A DNA stretch of 64,000 nt from Mycoplasma sp. CAG:776. GTDB taxonomy: Bacteria; Bacillota_I; Bacilli_A; RF39; UBA660. A program made the position numbers and the translations under genes. Under the pieces are notes generated by a model that was not told where the DNA came from, did not search any database, and saw only the letters and a list, made by a program, of their open reading frames with translations. The stretch lies in assembly GCA_000438195.1 (NCBI GenBank), contig FR903071.1:87394-151393 (forward strand), given 5' to 3'. This document shows positions 30,585 to 47,849 of the stretch, piece after piece; the first letter of the stretch is position 1; the number at the start of each line of letters is the position of its first letter.

Positions 30585-32488
<1,904 letters not shown>

Positions 32489-34953: not shown

Positions 34954-36033
34954 ATGGATCCTATAAAAGTTAAAAAATTACCACTTGAATATAAACTAGA
35001 TAAAGAGTTAATGAATTTGATTTCAGAAGCTAATTTAAAATTTGGAGAATACAAATCAAATTTAAAAAACAGTCAATTTGATTCAAGATTTTTTTTAGAC
35101 TCTATTATTTTAAGTGAAAGTTTAAAATCAACACAAATAGAGGGTACTCAAATTTCACAAGATGATATGTATTATTTAAAATATATGCCTAAAACAGATG
35201 ATAATTTAGAAATACAAAACTTAAAAAAGGTAATTGATTTTGCCAAAATGCATTTAAAAGATAATCATAAAATTGATATTAAATTCATTAATGATATTCA
35301 TAAGATATTATTAAATAGTGTTCGTGGAAATGAAAAAGATCCCGGGCATATTAGAACTACTCAAAATTGGATTGGCCCAAAAGGCTGTACGATTGAAGAA
35401 GCAACATTTATTCCGCCTATACCAGAAGAAGTTCCAATTTTGTTAAACAATTTATTTGAATATATGAATGATGCTTATGTTGATCCTATATTTATCAATT
35501 TGGCAATATCTCATTCACAATTTGAAACTATACATGCTTACTGTGATGGTAATGGTAGACTTGGTAGAGCACTCATTCCTGTTCAATTAGCTCTTTTAAC
35601 CGAAGAAGAACCAATTTTATTTTTATCAGAAGTAATTGAATTATATAAGCCTACTTATTATAAACTTTTAAACGAAAGTAGAAAAGGCAATATGTTGGGA
35701 TTTATAAAGTTTTTTTTGCAATGTATAATTGATCAATGCAATAATTATATTGCAAAAATAAATAGAATTAACCAAATTTATAATAAAGATATGGAAAAAA
35801 TTAAAATATTAAAAAGTAATGCTGTATATCGGATTATGCCTGCCATTATGAGACAAATTGTTTTTACAAAAAAAGAAATCGTAGAAGAGTCATCAGTTTC
35901 TAGAAATACTGTGTCTATATTAATAGACAAATTAGTAGAATTAAATATTTTAGAACCAGATTCTAATTATGCTAAGTTAGGTTATAGATACAATGAAATT
36001 TATAATGTCTTTGTGGGGAAAGATATGTCATAA
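34954..36033 (+). CDS. fic: Fic/Doc family protein (class II, with N-terminal inhibitory SxxxEG motif); AMPylase-type
   Basis: Fic motif HAYCDGNGRLGR. N-terminal STQIEG matches the (S/T)xxxE(G/N) inhibitory helix. 359 aa. Confidence 0.85.
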   Translation: MDPIKVKKLPLEYKLDKELMNLISEANLKFGEYKSNLKNSQFDSRFFLDSIILSESLKSTQIEGTQISQDDMYYLKYMPKTDDNLEIQNLKKVIDFAKMHLKDNHKIDIKFINDIHKILLNSVRGNEKDPGHIRTTQNWIGPKGCTIEEATFIPPIPEEVPILLNNLFEYMNDAYVDPIFINLAISHSQFETIHAYCDGNGRLGRALIPVQLALLTEEEPILFLSEVIELYKPTYYKLLNESRKGNMLGFIKFFLQCIIDQCNNYIAKINRINQIYNKDMEKIKILKSNAVYRIMPAIMRQIVFTKKEIVEESSVSRNTVSILIDKLVELNILEPDSNYAKLGYRYNEIYNVFVGKDMS

Positions 36034-36046
36034 AAATTTAAAGTAT

Positions 36047-36124
36047 GTTAAAATATTATTAGATTTGAGATTTATCGACCTATTTTAATCTTAAAGGTTT
36101 TAAATAGGCTACTTTCTCGCACCA
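36047..36124 (+). repeat. 78-bp direct repeat, copy 2 (downstream of fic), running straight into the 25-bp island-boundary repeat
   Basis: See copy 1. Confidence 0.6.
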
Positions 36125-36309
36125 GAGGGAAATAGCCTCGAACTATTCGAATTTTAATATATAGAAATCAATCGAAATGATTGATTTTTATCGTTATTAT
36201 CTAATGTTTTTCTTGATTATTTAAATAAATTAAGTTACAGTATACATTTTTATTTATTAATGAAAAAGACCAATTGTAGCAGTTGGTCTAATCGATAAAA
36301 TATAGTTTG

Positions 36310-36825
36310 TTATTTATTTCTTTTTACAAATATTATTCCTAATATTATAGTTATTGTTATAACTATAATTGGGGCAAATCTAAAGAATATCCATTCAAAT
36401 GAATGCCATATCGTTCCAATAACAGTCCATTCAGCATCATTGTAATCCCATGATTGATATGGACTATTTAATATTATGAATAAAATAAATAATAATATTA
36501 AAAATACATCAGCAATTATTAATGTATTAATCATTAGTTTTCTCTTTTGTTTTCGTTTCATTGATAATTGTTCATTTATAACTTCTAATTTTTCGGATAT
36601 TACTTGTAAGTCATTTTTTTCTTTTTCCTTGATGTTCTCACCTAGAATTTCACTAACCGGTGTTTCAAAAATTGTTGATATAGTTATTAACATTTCCGCA
36701 TCTGGAACAGATAAGCCTGACTCCCATTTTGAAATTGTTTGTCTAACAACATTTAATTTAATACTTAACTCTTCTTGGGAAAGTCCTTTTTGTTTTCTTA
36801 ATGCTTTTAAATTATCTTTTAACAT
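36310..36825 (-). CDS. XRE-family HTH protein with C-terminal transmembrane segments
   Basis: N-terminal HTH (LSQEELSIKLNVVRQTISKWESG), then 2 TMs. Terminator hairpin 36267..36289. Confidence 0.6.
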   Translation of the reverse strand: MLKDNLKALRKQKGLSQEELSIKLNVVRQTISKWESGLSVPDAEMLITISTIFETPVSEILGENIKEKEKNDLQVISEKLEVINEQLSMKRKQKRKLMINTLIIADVFLILLFILFIILNSPYQSWDYNDAEWTVIGTIWHSFEWIFFRFAPIIVITITIILGIIFVKRNK

Positions 36826-36912
36826 ATAACATTTTCTCCTTTCAAGTTAAGTTTATTATAAATATATCGTTGCTACAAGCAATGTATTTTAACATTGCAA
36901 TCAATTGTAAAT

Positions 36913-37158
36913 TTAATGAATAGTATGTGAAGTTATAATTGTGTAGCTATATGCGTTAATAGTTATCCTTATATTATTAATTTCACAATACCAATTCTTT
37001 CCTTGTTTATAAATATTACAGTTTTTATCTAAGATTTTATTTTTACAGTATTCAATTATATCATTAGTATTTAATTTAAGATTTTTCTTAATCCTATCCA
37101 TACCCATTTTGGTAGTATGAATTTTATCTATATTAGATAATAATATTTCTTTATTCAT
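36913..37158 (-). CDS. Small protein, DUF3781-like
   Basis: 81 aa, KNWYCE motif. Confidence 0.35.
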   Translation of the reverse strand: MNKEILLSNIDKIHTTKMGMDRIKKNLKLNTNDIIEYCKNKILDKNCNIYKQGKNWYCEINNIRITINAYSYTIITSHTIH

Positions 37159-37187
37159 AATTTTTACATCTTCCTTATATATTGAAC

Positions 37188-37634
37188 TTATTTTTCTAAT
37201 TTCATATATAAAACTGGGTAGGGTTTACCTTGATCATCTAACTCGTTTCTTTGATAAACTTTAAAACCTATGTGTTCATAAAAGCACTTTGCTTGTGGAT
37301 TATCTTCATTTACTGCAAGATCATTAATTCCATAATTTTCTATTCCGTATAAAAGCATTTTTTTGCCAATACCCTTGCCTCTACATTCAGAAATAATAAA
37401 TAGCATTTCAAGTTTATTATTTTCAATTCCCATAAATGCAATAGGTGTTCCCTCTTTATCAGTTTCAATAATTAAATGGGAGATATTGTTTAATGCTTCT
37501 GGTACATATTTTTTAATTTCTAAAATTTCTTCATTTGATAGAAATTTATGTGTTGCTCTTACAGAATTTTCCCACACCGTTAATAATTTATCTATAAGTT
37601 GTGGTGTTCTATCTTTGGCCTCAATTATTTTCAT
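37188..37634 (-). CDS. GNAT family N-acetyltransferase
   Basis: Acetyl-CoA binding motif ECRGKGIGKKML, C-terminal YEHIGFKV. Confidence 0.8.
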   Translation of the reverse strand: MKIIEAKDRTPQLIDKLLTVWENSVRATHKFLSNEEILEIKKYVPEALNNISHLIIETDKEGTPIAFMGIENNKLEMLFIISECRGKGIGKKMLLYGIENYGINDLAVNEDNPQAKCFYEHIGFKVYQRNELDDQGKPYPVLYMKLEK

Positions 37635-37660
37635 ATTTTACCTCACTTTCAAAGGGTAAT

Positions 37661-38170
37661 TTATTTATTAGTCCTTTTCCATTTTTTTATTTTACCTCTA
37701 AAATTTTTGAAATTAGCAATAGTATTTAGATGTATTAATCTACATACACTAAACTCCTTACCGTTTGTTTTTGCCCAATTTCTTTTTCCGATTTCCAATA
37801 ATTCTGTATCAGATAAATTAGTTACTAGTTGGATAATATTATCAACTTTTTGATTAAAAGTATCAATTAATTCTTTTAAAGAATAATCATTATGTTTATC
37901 ATAAAAACTTTGATATAACCAATCTAAATTATTCCATTTCCATTCAGTAGCAAGTGGTGTTTTCTGAATGGCTTTTTGTTCTTCATTTTCCCAAGCTAAA
38001 ACTAAATCCATCCAACCAATACAAAAGGATAACATTTGAAAAGGAGTATATTCAATTTTCCCGTCAACTACATTTATAGATGATTCATTTATATTCGAAT
38101 ATTCTTTAATAAACAAATCAGCATTATTTCTAATTGCTTCTATCAATTCTAATTTATTACTGTATTTCAT
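37661..38170 (-). CDS. ClbS/DfsB-family four-helix-bundle protein (DUF1706-like), tentative
   Basis: Overall similarity in length and pattern (LIEAIRNNADLFIKEY..., W-rich). Weak. Confidence 0.4.
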   Translation of the reverse strand: MKYSNKLELIEAIRNNADLFIKEYSNINESSINVVDGKIEYTPFQMLSFCIGWMDLVLAWENEEQKAIQKTPLATEWKWNNLDWLYQSFYDKHNDYSLKELIDTFNQKVDNIIQLVTNLSDTELLEIGKRNWAKTNGKEFSVCRLIHLNTIANFKNFRGKIKKWKRTNK

Positions 38171-38197
38171 AGTCCCTCCATAAATCGTAATTTTGAT

Positions 38198-38806
38198 TTA
38201 TAATTTCTTCCTATATAATAAACATTTTAAAGGAACCTCTTTTTCTAGTTTAAGGATAATATCTTCTTCTCCAACTTTATCAAATCCTCTGTTTTCATAG
38301 AATTGATAAGTACATTGATCATCAGTAAATAAGTAAATTTCTTTTCCTTTTTCTCTTTTTTCTAATTCATTTAACAACTTTGTTCCTATACCTTTTACTT
38401 TTAAATCAGGATTAGCTGCTAAAAATCTGATTTCTCCATTTGGTTTATTATTTTTTTGATATTCTTTTAGTAATTTTTGATTAACTTCATCATAAATACC
38501 AACACTATCTTTGAAGAAATATTTTTGAATAAACTCAACAAACTTAACATATATAGACTTTGAAAATGATTTATGACATTTAGGTTCATCATATATCTCT
38601 GCTATTAGAACTCCTGCTAGTTCTTCACCATAATATAATGCTAAAACTTGTGTTGCATTTAATAGTTCCAAATACCAAAAGTATCTACCATAAAAATTTA
38701 ATATTGTTTTATTATCAACATAAAAATTAAAGTGCATTCCTTTAATTGCATATTGAATTACTTTCTTGTAATCTTTTTCTGCCAATTCTTTAAATTCCAA
38801 TTCCAA
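38198..38806 (-). CDS. GNAT family N-acetyltransferase
   Basis: KVKGIGTKLLNELE...FYENRGF. Confidence 0.75.
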   Translation of the reverse strand: MELEFKELAEKDYKKVIQYAIKGMHFNFYVDNKTILNFYGRYFWYLELLNATQVLALYYGEELAGVLIAEIYDEPKCHKSFSKSIYVKFVEFIQKYFFKDSVGIYDEVNQKLLKEYQKNNKPNGEIRFLAANPDLKVKGIGTKLLNELEKREKGKEIYLFTDDQCTYQFYENRGFDKVGEEDIILKLEKEVPLKCLLYRKKL

Positions 38807-39762
38807 AGTATCATCTCGCTTTCAAATTACTATTTGTCGTTTAGATAATTATATCATTTTTTTCATATAAAAACTATTTTCAAATAACAATAAAAGTACT
38901 ATAAGTATGTAATATTAATTGTCTTTGTTAAATGGTTTTGGTAAGTTCCTAAACAGCACTATCGGTCAATTTATTTTAACTTTTTTAGATTAAAATATAT
39001 AGTATCGATTTTAAAAAAAGTTGATTTTTGATATTTAAGGAAAGAAAAGGATAGCTTAAGGTGTTTCAATTAAAAGCAAAAGATTTACTTTTTTATAAAG
39101 TACTAAAAAAAAGATAGAGTTTATATATGACAATAATATTGAAATTATACAGAATACCAAAGATGGTTTTGAAAGATATTAAAAATATGATTTATGTTGC
39201 AATTGAATGTGTCTAAAGAAAATTATTAGATTGAATTATTATAATAATTGTTAAAAGTCAATAGTTTTCTAAAAAATTTAATATGGAAAAGAAGCATATA
39301 ATAATAAAATTTCATACAAGTGAAACTTTAGAAAAATCATTGTCCTGGTTCTTATATTTATCTAAAAAGCAAATAAGAAAGTAGTCGAAATTCTATTGTT
39401 AAATAAAGGTTTTAACTCTGGAAAAGATTTATTTAACTCGCCGTTTAATAAAAATTCAAATTTACTTCGATTTTTAATTAATGGTTGACGTACATAATGA
39501 CTTTAAAATATAAATATGGTATAATAAATAATAATTTGGAATGTATTGAATGGATAAGAGATAACTAGCAATAGTAAAAACTAACGTGTTTTTATTAAAT
39601 CTATGTTCTTAAGTTCTTTGAACCAGTTTATAAAATGGTTTTGGTAAAATAGATACGAATCTACAATACTTCTAAGAATTATAATACATCAAAAAATATA
39701 AATAGAAAGGGAAAAATCAAATATATTAATATTTATATAAGATTGATTATACGAGAATTTAA

Positions 39763-40494
39763 ATGAAAAATGTAATTATTTATGATTTCGATGGAACATT
39801 AACTCCATACTCTTTACCTAAATTTGAAATTTTAGAAAAAAGTGGAATGAAAGGTGGAGCACATAATCCAAAATTTTTAGAATTATCAAAGCAAAAATCA
39901 AAAGATAAAAATATAGATTTATATGAAGCTATGTATGAAACTTATTTTGAAATTATAAAAAGTGCAAATTTTGATTTAAAAGATGAAAATTTTTGTTTAG
40001 GTTATAATAATGTTGATTATAATGAAGGAGTAACTGACTTTTTAGATATGCTTTGTCAAAATCATGTTTCAAATTATTTGTTAAGTTCTGGAATTAAGGT
40101 GTTTTTAGAAAAAGTCTCTGTTTCATCCTATTTTAAAAAGATTTATGCAACGATATTTAATTATAATTTAAACCATGAAGCCATAGGAATAAAATTTTTA
40201 ATGAGTGATAAAAATAAAGTCGTTGCTATAGAAGAAATATTAAAAACAATTGGAAATAAAGATAATGATTGTTCTAATGTAATATATATAGGGGATGGAC
40301 TTACAGATTATTATGCAATGAAATACATTAAAGAACATGGTGGAACAACAATCTTTGTATACCAAGATCCCAATCATAAAGATATTTTAGCTATAAAAGA
40401 AAAAAAGGTTGTTGACTTTTATACAAATGCTATTTATTCACAAAATGGTGAGTTATATCATTATGTGAGAAAATTATGTAAAATTAATAACTAA
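39763..40494 (+). CDS. HAD-superfamily hydrolase
   Basis: N-terminal DFDGTLT motif and C-terminal GDGLTD. Confidence 0.7.
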   Translation: MKNVIIYDFDGTLTPYSLPKFEILEKSGMKGGAHNPKFLELSKQKSKDKNIDLYEAMYETYFEIIKSANFDLKDENFCLGYNNVDYNEGVTDFLDMLCQNHVSNYLLSSGIKVFLEKVSVSSYFKKIYATIFNYNLNHEAIGIKFLMSDKNKVVAIEEILKTIGNKDNDCSNVIYIGDGLTDYYAMKYIKEHGGTTIFVYQDPNHKDILAIKEKKVVDFYTNAIYSQNGELYHYVRKLCKINN

Positions 40495-40531: not shown

Positions 40532-41221
40532 TTATTTTTTATTACAAGTAAGATTATAGCTTTCCTTTATATAAGCTATTATTTCTTCATCTTCTATTGT
40601 ATTATCTAAGATTATTGTAATCCATTTTTTCTTATTCATATGATAAGCTTTATAAAATCCTTTTTTATTTAGTAATTGGCTTATTTTTTCTTCATTTAAT
40701 TTTAAATTAATCACTTCTACTTTTTCAATATTATCATTGTTTTCTATTTTTCCTCTTTTTACATTCATAATTAATGCATACCACTTCTTATTATTAGCGT
40801 GTCTAAATATACCACAATCTGGATTTTTCTTCCAAGGAAATTCTGGAGTTGTATGATAATAATTTATTATAAAATCAGCTACTCTATTTGTTTGTTCTGA
40901 TCCAAAATACAAGATGGTACAACATTTATCTTTAATATCAAATAAAACTTTTTTAAATTCTTCACGAACTTTATTGATGAACTCTCCATTTAAGTTTTCA
41001 TTACGATAATTTAAATATTCTTCATCAAAATTAGCATCTATTATTTTCCCTTTTATATTATTATAATAATCGATTTCTATTATGATTTTAAATGTATTAT
41101 TTAAAATTTTTTTTGAATAAATATAACTATTATTAATTTCTTTAAAACCATAAGACATCAATTTATCTATCTTTATTTGGGCTTTCTTAAATATTTTTTC
41201 CTCTAAATTCATTTTTATCAC
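40532..41221 (-). CDS. MmcQ/YjbR-family protein with N-terminal extension
   Basis: C-terminal YHMNKKKWITIILD and surrounding pattern typical of YjbR (DUF419). Confidence 0.6.
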   Translation of the reverse strand: MIKMNLEEKIFKKAQIKIDKLMSYGFKEINNSYIYSKKILNNTFKIIIEIDYYNNIKGKIIDANFDEEYLNYRNENLNGEFINKVREEFKKVLFDIKDKCCTILYFGSEQTNRVADFIINYYHTTPEFPWKKNPDCGIFRHANNKKWYALIMNVKRGKIENNDNIEKVEVINLKLNEEKISQLLNKKGFYKAYHMNKKKWITIILDNTIEDEEIIAYIKESYNLTCNKK

Positions 41222-41231
41222 CTATTATTAA

Positions 41232-42599
41232 CTATTTATTTTTTGATTTTACTAAGATATAAGGTTTTTCTTCTTCTGTTTGCGGCTTTATTAGAATTAT
41301 TCTTGAATATTCTCCTGCAAAAATTCTAAATAAAGCACTACTAATACATTCATCAAAAACGGCTTTTAAACTTCTTGCTCCACTTTGTTTTAATATAGAT
41401 AATTCAGCAATATATTCTATAAATTCATTATTAAATCCAAAATCTACGTTTAACATTTCAAATAATTTTCTATATGTGTTTAATGGACTAAAATCTGATT
41501 CTTTTAATATTCTGATAATATCTTCTTTTTTTAAAGGATTCATTGCAATTATTTTAGAAAATCTACCCATTAATTCATTTAACATTCCATAATTAGTAAA
41601 ATGTTCTATTTTAAGATGTTTATAATCCTGTTCTTCTGTGATGCCAGTAAAAGCTCCTAATCCCACTATAGTTAATTTTGAAGTATTAAATGTACCACTC
41701 GGTAAGTAAAATATAGAACCATCTAATAACTTTAATAAAGATCTTTGTACCCCTAGCCTTGAAACATGAGATTCTTTACCGTTATTTTTTTCAGCTAGCT
41801 TATCAAATTCATCTATTACTAATATTCCTTTTTCTGCTTTTTCTATTCTTCCATTTGCTGCTAAACATAGTGCTTCTAACATATCCGTTACTTTTCTTCC
41901 TTGGTAGCCAGTTTCTGAAAGAGAGGTTGCATCTTCTATTATTATTGGAATATTATATAGTTTTGATATTCTTTTTAATATTTCTGTTTTCCCTGTTCCA
42001 GTTGGTCCGCATATTAGGATACTTTCTTTTAACTTAGCAATTATATCTATATCAAAATCTGAATTTATGACTTTCTGATTTTTAAATAGAGCTGTTAATA
42101 TTTGCATAATTTGTTCATCTTGAGAAATAATTGTTCTTTTTATTGCCATATACATTGAAAATATATCTGCATTTTTCTCTCTTTCTTCTAATGTAAAATC
42201 TAATTTATTCTGCTCTTCTTTCTCCAATAAAGCTAGTAATTCTTTATTTAGTAGCTTTGCTAATCCCGTTCCTTCTTTATCTCTTAAATAATATTTGGCT
42301 GTGCTTTCTAATCTTTTTCTTCGTATTATATCAAAGTTCACTTTATTATTATTAAGCTTTATCGCTTCTATTAAATCATCTTTTATAAAAACAAAATTAC
42401 TTTCATTTCTATTTTTATCTACGCTACTTGCATATATTCCACTATATATTCCAGTTATTACATGGTTCATATAATTTCCTTCGGAGTTCATAAATGATAT
42501 ACTAACACAATAATCTCTAAAATAAAATATTTCATGTTTTTGATTTTCATAATTTATATATTCTTTCTCAAATAAATAGCCTATTTTTAATTCTATCAT
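41232..42599 (-). CDS. ClpX/HslU-like AAA+ ATPase with novel N-terminal domain (no ClpX zinc-binding domain)
   Basis: Walker A ILICGPTGTGKT, Walker B GILVIDEFDKL, sensor-2 SGARSLKAV, GYQGRKVTD (ClpX GYVG-like region). ~190-aa unrelated N-terminus. Confidence 0.7.
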   Translation of the reverse strand: MIELKIGYLFEKEYINYENQKHEIFYFRDYCVSISFMNSEGNYMNHVITGIYSGIYASSVDKNRNESNFVFIKDDLIEAIKLNNNKVNFDIIRRKRLESTAKYYLRDKEGTGLAKLLNKELLALLEKEEQNKLDFTLEEREKNADIFSMYMAIKRTIISQDEQIMQILTALFKNQKVINSDFDIDIIAKLKESILICGPTGTGKTEILKRISKLYNIPIIIEDATSLSETGYQGRKVTDMLEALCLAANGRIEKAEKGILVIDEFDKLAEKNNGKESHVSRLGVQRSLLKLLDGSIFYLPSGTFNTSKLTIVGLGAFTGITEEQDYKHLKIEHFTNYGMLNELMGRFSKIIAMNPLKKEDIIRILKESDFSPLNTYRKLFEMLNVDFGFNNEFIEYIAELSILKQSGARSLKAVFDECISSALFRIFAGEYSRIILIKPQTEEEKPYILVKSKNK

Positions 42600-42878
42600 A
42601 TTTATTTCCCCTATCTGTTTTAATTATTATAACATATTTCTTTTATCTTATCAGAAAATGCCCATTCTTAATTTTATGTTTCATTTTTTGATTCATTTGT
42701 GTCTTATTTTAACTTAATTGCTGGAACATTTCAACCTTTTTTAAGCTTATCATAATCAACCATTAAATTAACATCAGCCTTTTTAAAGATCTTAATGATA
42801 ATCCAGTTTGGTACATCCAAATATTTTATGAATGAATGTTTCTTGTTAAAAAAAATTGCTATATTTCTATAACAATTT

Positions 42879-46672: not shown

Positions 46673-47290
46673 TTATTCTTCAATGATTATTCCTTTACTA
46701 TTTACTATCTCTAAAAGACTTAATAATGATATTTTAGAGCCTATTAAATCATCTAAATTAATTTTTACTTCTTCAAATTGACTTGTTCTTAAATCACAAT
46801 TTTTAAAAATTGTATCAATAAAATTTTCAGATATTAATTTACATCTATCAAATTTCATATTAGTGTATTTGTTATGCCGATGGATATTTTCCATTAATTT
46901 TGTGTCATTAATGTTACTATTATCTATTTTACTATTTTCTACTTTCGAATATTCAATTAAACACTCTTCTATTAACATATTATTAATCGTACATTCGAAA
47001 ATAGATACATTAATTAATTTACAGTTAATAAAGTAAACATTACTCCAGGAGTTACCACTAAAAGTTACATTATTTAATTCGCAATTTTCAAATTTTACTT
47101 TACCAAAAAAAGTGTTATCAAAATAAACATTATTGAGCTTACATTTTTTAAAATAGATTTCTCGCATTGTCTCAAAATTTATATTTTCTTTGGTAATTGT
47201 CTCTTCTTCAAACCTTAAATAATTTAAAGTTAATTCTTCATGATTACCAAAATTTTCTTTTAATAATTCATGACTAAATTCCCATTTCAT
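46673..47290 (-). CDS. Pentapeptide-repeat protein (start adjusted to internal Met)
   Basis: Tandem A(D/N)LxX-type pentapeptide repeats (NCELNNVTFSGNSWSNVYFINCKLINVSI...). Confidence 0.65.
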   Translation of the reverse strand: MKWEFSHELLKENFGNHEELTLNYLRFEEETITKENINFETMREIYFKKCKLNNVYFDNTFFGKVKFENCELNNVTFSGNSWSNVYFINCKLINVSIFECTINNMLIEECLIEYSKVENSKIDNSNINDTKLMENIHRHNKYTNMKFDRCKLISENFIDTIFKNCDLRTSQFEEVKINLDDLIGSKISLLSLLEIVNSKGIIIEE

Positions 47291-47849
47291 CTGTTTCCTC
47301 TTTATAAATAGATGTAAATAATTCACTTTCTTGTTCGTTTTCTTTTTCACTATCTAATTCTGGTAATTCACTTAAACTTGACAGACCAAAACAATCTAAA
47401 AATTCACTCGTTGTGCGATATAAGTTGGGTCTTCCTGGCATTTTCGATTTTCCGGCTTCTTTTACAAGTCCTTTTGCTACTAATTTTCTAATAATATGAT
47501 TACTACTTACCCCTCTCATCGCATCTATTTCGACTCTCGTAATTGGTTGATTATAAGCAATAACTGCTAAAACTTCTAGACTAGAAGGGCTAAGAGTATT
47601 AGCTTCTGGGTTTTCAATTAGTTTCTGATAATATTCTTTATGTTCTTCTTTGGTTGTTAGTTTAAAGGCATCTCCAAGATAACTAATTCTAATTCCTCTA
47701 TTATCACTTTCATAACTCTCTTTTAATTTTAATAGAAGTTCTTTTGCTTCCTCTAAATTAATATTCATTACTTCACATAAATTCTTTAAATTAATCCCTT
47801 CATCACCAACAACAAATAAAATACCTTCTAAAATGCCTAATTTATTCAT
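47274..47849 (-). CDS. scpB: Segregation and condensation protein B
   Basis: Winged-helix ScpB motifs (GILEGILFVVGDEGI, ITRVEIDAMRGV...LVAKGLV). Confidence 0.85.
   Translation of the reverse strand: MNKLGILEGILFVVGDEGINLKNLCEVMNINLEEAKELLLKLKESYESDNRGIRISYLGDAFKLTTKEEHKEYYQKLIENPEANTLSPSSLEVLAVIAYNQPITRVEIDAMRGVSSNHIIRKLVAKGLVKEAGKSKMPGRPNLYRTTSEFLDCFGLSSLSELPELDSEKENEQESELFTSIYKEETDEMGI

Follow-up and report, generated by a model that had tools for sequence, protein, structure and literature searches.

ClpX, one of the best-understood protein machines, is the closest described system to the gene reported here, and its zinc domain, RKH loops and IGF loops are treated as the hallmarks of its specificity and docking. 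We describe a gene from a 64,000-nucleotide stretch of Mycoplasma sp. CAG:776 DNA (assembly GCA_000438195.1, contig FR903071.1, positions 87,394 to 151,393; the whole of this stretch is hereafter the window) whose family has removed or replaced all three of these hallmarks, and yet its motor is strongly constrained. A full-text literature search found no published account of this family, which is previously undescribed and is a clade-restricted ClpX derivative. Other described systems share parts of the picture. HslU (ClpY) has a related AAA+ core and itself naturally lacks an IGF loop. In the ClpA, ClpC and ClpB class the shared principle is a conserved motor with an N-terminal domain that sets the choice of substrate or adaptor, although these proteins have a two-ring Hsp100 architecture as against the single ClpX-type ring of the window protein. 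The nearest published analogue is ClpX3 of Myxococcus xanthus (MXAN_2743), an isolated, non-essential clpX paralog that is reported to lack the N-terminal zinc domain and RKH motif, thought to have been horizontally acquired and to have a specialised role in heat stress and heat tolerance (PMC11423568). Compared by description only, the window protein resembles ClpX3 in being isolated and in having neither zinc domain nor RKH motif. However, ClpX3 is described as lacking an N-domain where the window protein has a different one, its published description does not mention the IGF loop (PMC11423568), and the two come from different phyla.

In alignments, the protein encoded in the window has the motor elements of ClpX at the following places.

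41232..42599, minus strand: the AAA+ gene, an open reading frame for a ClpX-derived unfoldase of 455 amino acids, with its stop codon TAG at 41234-41232
41985..42008, minus strand: Walker A, GPTGTGKT, residues 198-205
41898..41909, minus strand: pore-1 loop GYQG, residues 231-234 (GYQGRKV being residues 231-237), the counterpart of GYVG in ClpX
41802..41822, minus strand: Walker B, LVIDEFD, residues 260-266
41370..41384, minus strand: sensor-2, SGARS, residues 406-410

The Arg finger aligns at R346, within LMGRF (residues 343-347), and Pfam finds AAA_2, AAA and ClpB_D2-small in the protein. The best family match is to the NCBIfam ClpX model NF003745, at 178.3 bits against a cutoff of 359, with TIGR00382 (ClpX) giving 158.8 bits against 370.75 and TIGR00390 (HslU) giving 114 bits against 362. 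The closest solved structures are also ClpX proteins (PDB, E 2.5e-36), and an AlphaFold model of all 455 residues, with a predicted local distance difference test (pLDDT) score of 82, matches ClpX in Foldseek with an E of 1e-21 and a template modelling (TM) score on the target of 0.75-0.83. The likeness to ClpX (NF003745/TIGR00382) takes in the core and fold of the HCLR clade of AAA+ proteins, the GYxG loop, the Arg finger, the sensor-2 GAR and a small domain of the ClpB_D2-small type, with an identity of roughly 25-35% in the core. HslU is matched in the PDB at E values of 1e-20 to 1e-30. The window protein differs from it in having no I-domain between Walker A and Walker B (profile positions of about 108-242 are unmatched) and in scoring lower against it than against ClpX.

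An earlier note on this DNA, written from the letters alone, had called the gene an orphan ClpX/HslU-like AAA+ unfoldase of 455 amino acids that lacked the ClpX zinc-binding domain and had intact Walker A and B motifs, a pore-loop-like GYQGRKV and a sensor-2 GAR. This description stands. The motifs are all present in the alignment, the NCBIfam, PDB and AlphaFold/Foldseek comparisons agree on a ClpX-type core, and no Cys cluster is seen when the protein is aligned with E. coli ClpX (the E. coli sequence in our alignment agrees with the PDB alignments). The gene is an orphan in the sense that it has no protease gene nearby: a scan of species-representative genomes returned 79 species-level loci with a family member, and the 6 kb around each of them hold neither a ClpP nor an HslV gene. 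The window gene, moreover, is not beside clpP or tig. On sequence and predicted fold, then, the gene is a real member of the ClpX/HslU-type unfoldase class and not a canonical ClpX. An identical protein is on record for 'Mycoplasma sp. CAG:776', and at least one public record labels it ClpX, a label that is misleading for this protein.

Two loops of ClpX are missing from the motor, at sites that can be placed by alignment.

41682..41705, minus strand: site of the missing RKH loop, residues 299-306 (LPSGTFNT), 11 residues shorter than in E. coli ClpX
41625..41651, minus strand: site of the missing IGF loop for ClpP docking, residues 317-325 (FTGITEEQD), 27 residues shorter than in E. coli ClpX, placed also by the break in the PDB match

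The earlier note had proposed looking for an IGF-like docking loop in an alignment with ClpX. In that alignment the IGF loop is entirely deleted from the window protein, and there is no RKH pore-entry loop either. The PDB match to ClpX comes in two stretches, and the break between them, at query residues 301-322, spans 54 residues in H. pylori ClpX. With the C4 zinc N-domain, the RKH loop and the IGF loop all absent, the protein has no canonical means of docking to ClpP. Not all members of the family have lost the docking loop. Three relatives (L025, L026 and L043) carry a 22-residue insertion with NTIGFGS at the very site of the deletion in the window protein, and a fourth (L049) has QIGVGA there.

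L025:5806-7461, L026:3952-5412, L043:6001-7461 and L049:6004-7467: IGF- or IGV-bearing relatives

Relatives score 178-210 bits against the ClpX model, and L026, which has the loop, aligns to that model in a single continuous match of 210 bits. The presence of an IGF or IGV loop at the homologous site in four relatives argues that the family derives from an IGF-bearing, ClpP-docking ClpX, and that most members, the window protein included, are now without the loop. We suggest that the IGF-less and IGF-bearing members together form a natural series for the uncoupling of an unfoldase from its protease and its retargeting by a new N-domain.

Where ClpX has its zinc domain, the window protein has an unrelated, beta-rich domain of about 130 residues that is specific to the family.

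42204..42599, minus strand: N-domain, residues 1-132, with a long beta-hairpin (3-17/20-37), short strands, two helices and the start of a long connecting helix (pLDDT 85-93)
42150..42203, minus strand: acidic, low-confidence linker from the N-domain to the AAA+ module, residues 133-150 (pLDDT below 50 at residues 133-143 in the full-length model)

The earlier note had given the N-terminal region as about 190 residues with no recognisable motif. The second part of this statement holds, since the N-domain has no match in Pfam, in the PDB by sequence or profile, in the PDB by Foldseek (best E 0.23) or among the BFVD viral structures by Foldseek (best E 0.11). Its length has to be revised to about 130-150 residues, because homology to ClpX begins at about residues 140-157 in the NCBIfam and PDB matches and because the model has a separate N-domain of residues 1-132 followed by a disordered linker at residues 133-143. 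The N-domain was found in just 35 representatives of 1.84 billion clusters, and in an N-terminal position every time. One protein that carries it, P0260, an incomplete metagenomic protein of 332 amino acids, has the same N-domain joined to a module of the ClpA/B/C D1 type (GPPGVGKT ... ILFIDEFHTIVGAG ... RRF), not of the ClpX type.

The family is found in about 80-100 species, all of them uncultured gut Bacilli or "Tenericutes" known as metagenome-assembled genomes (MAGs), which are small and are labelled 'Mycoplasma sp. CAG:776', 'Tenericutes' or 'Bacilli bacterium'. These hosts are abundant in the human and animal gut, but hardly any work has been done on their proteostasis machinery. Every one of the 69 full-length species-level copies in our motif survey has its motor motifs intact, with G[YF]xG in all 69. 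The large AAA+ domain has a mean pairwise identity of 74%, the small domain 66% and the N-domain 31%, and the C-terminal tail varies in both length and sequence. To judge from these identities, evolution is much faster in the N-domain than in the motor. The gene stands alone, as a lone gene, in all 79 loci. Three genomes have two copies each, and in one of them the pair is in tandem (L035:6001-7374 and L035:7537-8883). The N-domains of these two paralogs are divergent, and the family tree places the paralogs in separate clades.

We consider the product of the gene likely to be an AAA+ unfoldase or remodeller of ClpX descent that stands alone, is independent of ClpP and is directed by its N-domain. 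By analogy with ClpX, the protein would form a hexamer, and the pore-1 tyrosine would thread polypeptide through the central pore at the expense of ATP. Choice of the substrate or an adaptor would pass from the zinc domain and RKH loops to the N-domain. A specific target would be unfolded or disassembled but not degraded, because the ClpP-docking element is missing. Several observations weigh against this reading. The family has no characterised homolog, and the protein may dock to a protease through another surface. A rough neighbour-joining tree places three of the four IGF copies inside groups of IGF-less copies, which implies either repeated loss of the loop or its regain by recombination, and the tree does not separate the two. 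Four distant metagenomic proteins with the same N-domain (P0250, P0252, P0258 and P0268) lack Walker A and/or Walker B together with the pore-1 loop, and it is possible that they are pseudo-ATPases or decaying copies. Other copies are split by a frameshift or stop codon or are shortened at the N-terminus (L041:6001-7350, L079:5956-7057, L040, L063, L054, L069 and L081), and the shortened copy in L054 abuts KilA-N and Mob_Pre genes. The loss of motifs and the split and shortened copies show that some lineages can do without the function.

The same copies bear on the idea that the gene is simply the housekeeping ClpX ortholog of its clade, which would have had its N-domain replaced, would serve general proteostasis and would perhaps be the sole ClpX-like protein left after genome reduction. 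We regard this as unlikely. In its favour, the public label is ClpX, ClpX is the best family match, some members have an IGF loop, about 80-100 species-level genomes of a single clade carry the gene, and its immediate neighbours are mostly housekeeping genes. One subfamily also has a stable chromosomal position. In ten species, a member of about 466 amino acids has dnaE on one side and a histidine-kinase/response-regulator pair on the other, both read from the strand opposite to its own, and this fixed position points to stable vertical inheritance; the gene context of the other subfamilies is variable. On the other hand, the ClpX score of the window protein is half the equivalog cutoff, it has none of the zinc domain, RKH loop and IGF loop, and the gene is absent from the syntenic site of a close relative, L008. 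There are also the three two-copy genomes, the split and shortened copies and the motif-dead members. Taken together, presence and absence, extra copies, and broken and motif-dead copies suggest a dispensable accessory gene over an essential housekeeping one.

An accessory gene with a fast-diverging N-terminus could also be a single-gene conflict system, either a defence against phages and mobile elements or the cargo of a mobile element, in which the N-terminal domain would act as a sensor that recruits a foreign protein to the motor. The pattern is suggestive: divergence is much quicker in the N-domain than in the motor, some genomes hold paralogs whose N-domains differ, in one case in tandem, pseudogenes are frequent, and the gene is polymorphic for presence and absence between close relatives. 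Moreover, about ten loci have a gene for a serine recombinase, a Mob_Pre relaxase or KilA-N immediately downstream, and in the window itself a serine recombinase and other accessory genes shared with family loci lie within 10 kb. The neighbourhoods as a whole do not point in this direction. Of 112 immediate neighbours, drawn from 66 loci, most are ordinary genes of the chromosome (for ABC transporters, tRNA synthetases, ribosomal protein L13, GatB, RNase J and ScpB), with one clear defence gene, a retron reverse transcriptase, and there is no defence-island signal. Nor is there an associated nuclease, protease or toxin effector, and the family was not found in phage, IMG/VR or plasmid collections. 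The best matches of the AAA+ protein in PADLOC-DB v2 are DolB (7e-07) and IetA (1e-06), which reflect generic AAA similarity over residues of about 110-270 and are not meaningful; DolA and IetS, the second genes of these two systems, are not among the top 25 families in a bulk PADLOC scan of the 112 neighbours and were not searched by name. A defence module, which the earlier note had raised, therefore finds no positive support in the PADLOC matches or among the neighbours, and we think a conflict system of this kind quite improbable. Three of the immediate neighbours match the PADLOC candidate system PDC-S22, with a best E of 3e-114. Annotated clpX copies are also found on megaplasmids of Bacillus thuringiensis, Paenibacillus, Aneurinibacillus and Clostridium perfringens; they share about 32% identity with the core of the window protein.

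A more speculative form of our preferred reading, that of a ClpP-independent unfoldase directed by its N-domain, joins it to some of these observations. A motor freed from ClpP and a rapidly diversifying N-terminal recognition domain could amount, in these Mollicutes-like gut Bacilli, to a single-gene, ATP-driven 'targeted unfoldase' that neutralises specific foreign or regulatory proteins, such as those of phages or mobile elements, by unfolding alone, with the N-domains of the paralogs providing different specificities. We hold this to be rather unlikely. If true, it would be a hitherto undescribed kind of conflict or remodelling system, one that needs neither a protease nor an effector.

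The earlier note had also placed the AAA+ gene in an operon with a dedicated partner, an MmcQ/YjbR-family protein with an N-terminal extension of about 100 residues, 11 bp downstream.

40532..41212, minus strand: two-domain MmcQ/YjbR-family gene, 226 amino acids from the ATG at 41212 (Pfam YjbR, 1.7e-19), taken here as an adjacent gene and not a functional partner

The downstream gene does belong to this family. Its protein matches PF04237 (YjbR) at 70.7 bits against a gathering score of 30.1, over residues 121-224 only, and matches PSPTO_3016 in the PDB (2KFP) at 1.3e-34 over profile positions 111-221. Thus its C-terminal half is a bona fide YjbR domain like those of the known family (PDB 2KFP/3H9X and 2FKI), from which it differs in an additional N-terminal region of about 110 residues, close to the length first given. 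This extension is common to its homologs, and no relatives of it were detectable outside the two-domain YjbR family. That family has 285 homologs, in forms of about 220 and about 340 amino acids. About half of them are of the longer form (P0129, P0131, P0160, P0205 and L102:6001-7023), which has a further C-terminal domain of about 115 residues (WIVPANPKYYDVI...GDIVYLYVG.PYSAILYKCEV) lying outside the precomputed Pfam hits. The start of the window gene is most likely the ATG at 41212, since a Shine-Dalgarno sequence, AGGTGA (41223-41218), precedes it and public gene calls (P0121/L009) agree. The gap from the AAA+ stop codon is then 19 bp, or 10 bp with a GTG start, and not 11 bp.

Both genes lie on the same strand, and a terminator scan called nothing terminator-like in the gap, which makes their co-transcription in this strain probable. 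That much of the proposed operon survives. Its conservation does not, as gene neighbourhoods compared across genomes from either side show the pair not to be kept. A YjbR gene is found within 6 kb of the AAA+ homolog in none of the 79 loci, and of five contexts of YjbR homologs from other genomes, four are without any AAA+ gene. In the fifth (L011/L012) there is only an unrelated AAA+ gene for a protein of 701 amino acids, two genes away and in a separate transcription unit, whose core is 29% identical to the window AAA+ protein; its proximity looks coincidental. This 701-residue protein (L011:6791-8896 and L012:3218-5323) has an N-terminal region of about 340 residues of no known family and a ClpX-like AAA_2/ClpB_D2-small core. 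The N-terminal regions of the window's AAA+ and YjbR proteins are unrelated to each other (hhalign probability 0.3%).

A close relative of the strain indicates how the two genes came to be adjacent. In L008 the order is ScpA, ScpB, pentapeptide, ABC and FtsX, followed directly by YjbR, with no AAA+ gene. YjbR is 88% identical between L008 and the window and the flanking genes are 93-97% identical. By blastn, homology between the two ends at 42835 and returns at 41230. On its left side the indel starts just after the hairpin and T-run that follow FtsX, and its right edge coincides with the stop codon of the AAA+ gene.

41231..42834, no strand: 1,604-bp segment with the AAA+ gene and 235 bp upstream, replaced by 34 bp in L008 (blastn, alignment and junctions)
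42835..42878, minus strand: A/T-rich hairpin and T-run after the FtsX permease gene, at the left edge of the indel and conserved with L008 (sequence and alignment); the terminator scanner made no call here because the stem has too few G-C pairs
42626..42654, minus strand: extended -10 promoter-like site (CTGATA-17-TG-TATAAT) within the indel segment, 27 bp before the start of the AAA+ gene, a pattern match only from a consensus scan

The AAA+-YjbR arrangement is seen in this strain only, other contigs of 'Mycoplasma sp. CAG:776' keeping the same gene order. On this comparison the adjacency is the product of a 1.6-kb insertion or deletion, a local accident and not a functional pair. The alternative is a two-gene module in which the unfoldase acts on the extended YjbR protein or is targeted by it. 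Short spacing on one strand without a terminator-like site would suit such a module, as would the one unrelated metagenome in which a YjbR homolog lies two genes from the different, 701-residue ClpX-like protein. We find it very hard to credit, given that the association is seen in none of the 79 loci, that the other YjbR contexts are free of AAA+ genes save for that 701-residue protein, that L008 has YjbR directly after FtsX, and that two-domain YjbR proteins form a widespread family by themselves. The absence of YjbR from all 79 loci and the clean indel in L008 leave an operon with a dedicated partner unsupported, and the apparent operon should not spread as a functional link.

Homology to L008 stops again right after the YjbR stop codon, so that a variable island begins there. 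Around the AAA+ gene, Pfam finds two GNATs, a HAD, a Fic and a DUF1706, the last of which we take to be the ClbS family; the GNAT, ClbS-like and HAD neighbours listed in the earlier note are thus accounted for. Several genes in this part of the window (30779-32488 and 34954-40494) have counterparts close to AAA+ homologs elsewhere.

30779-32488, plus strand: large serine recombinase (Resolvase, Recombinase and Zn_ribbon_recom), 57% identical to one beside the AAA+ gene in L017
36310-36825: helix-turn-helix gene, 80% identical to a gene near the AAA+ homolog in L005
36913-37158: DUF3781 gene, 84% identical to a gene near the AAA+ homolog in L023
39763-40494: HAD gene, 62% identical to a gene near the AAA+ homolog in L022

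The conserved flank on the other side includes one further gene.

46673-47350, minus strand: pentapeptide-repeat protein between ScpB and the ABC/FtsX pair, whose open reading frame overlaps the end of scpB if it starts at a GTG

The gene calls for this protein in L008 and L009 are of a shorter form of 205 amino acids.

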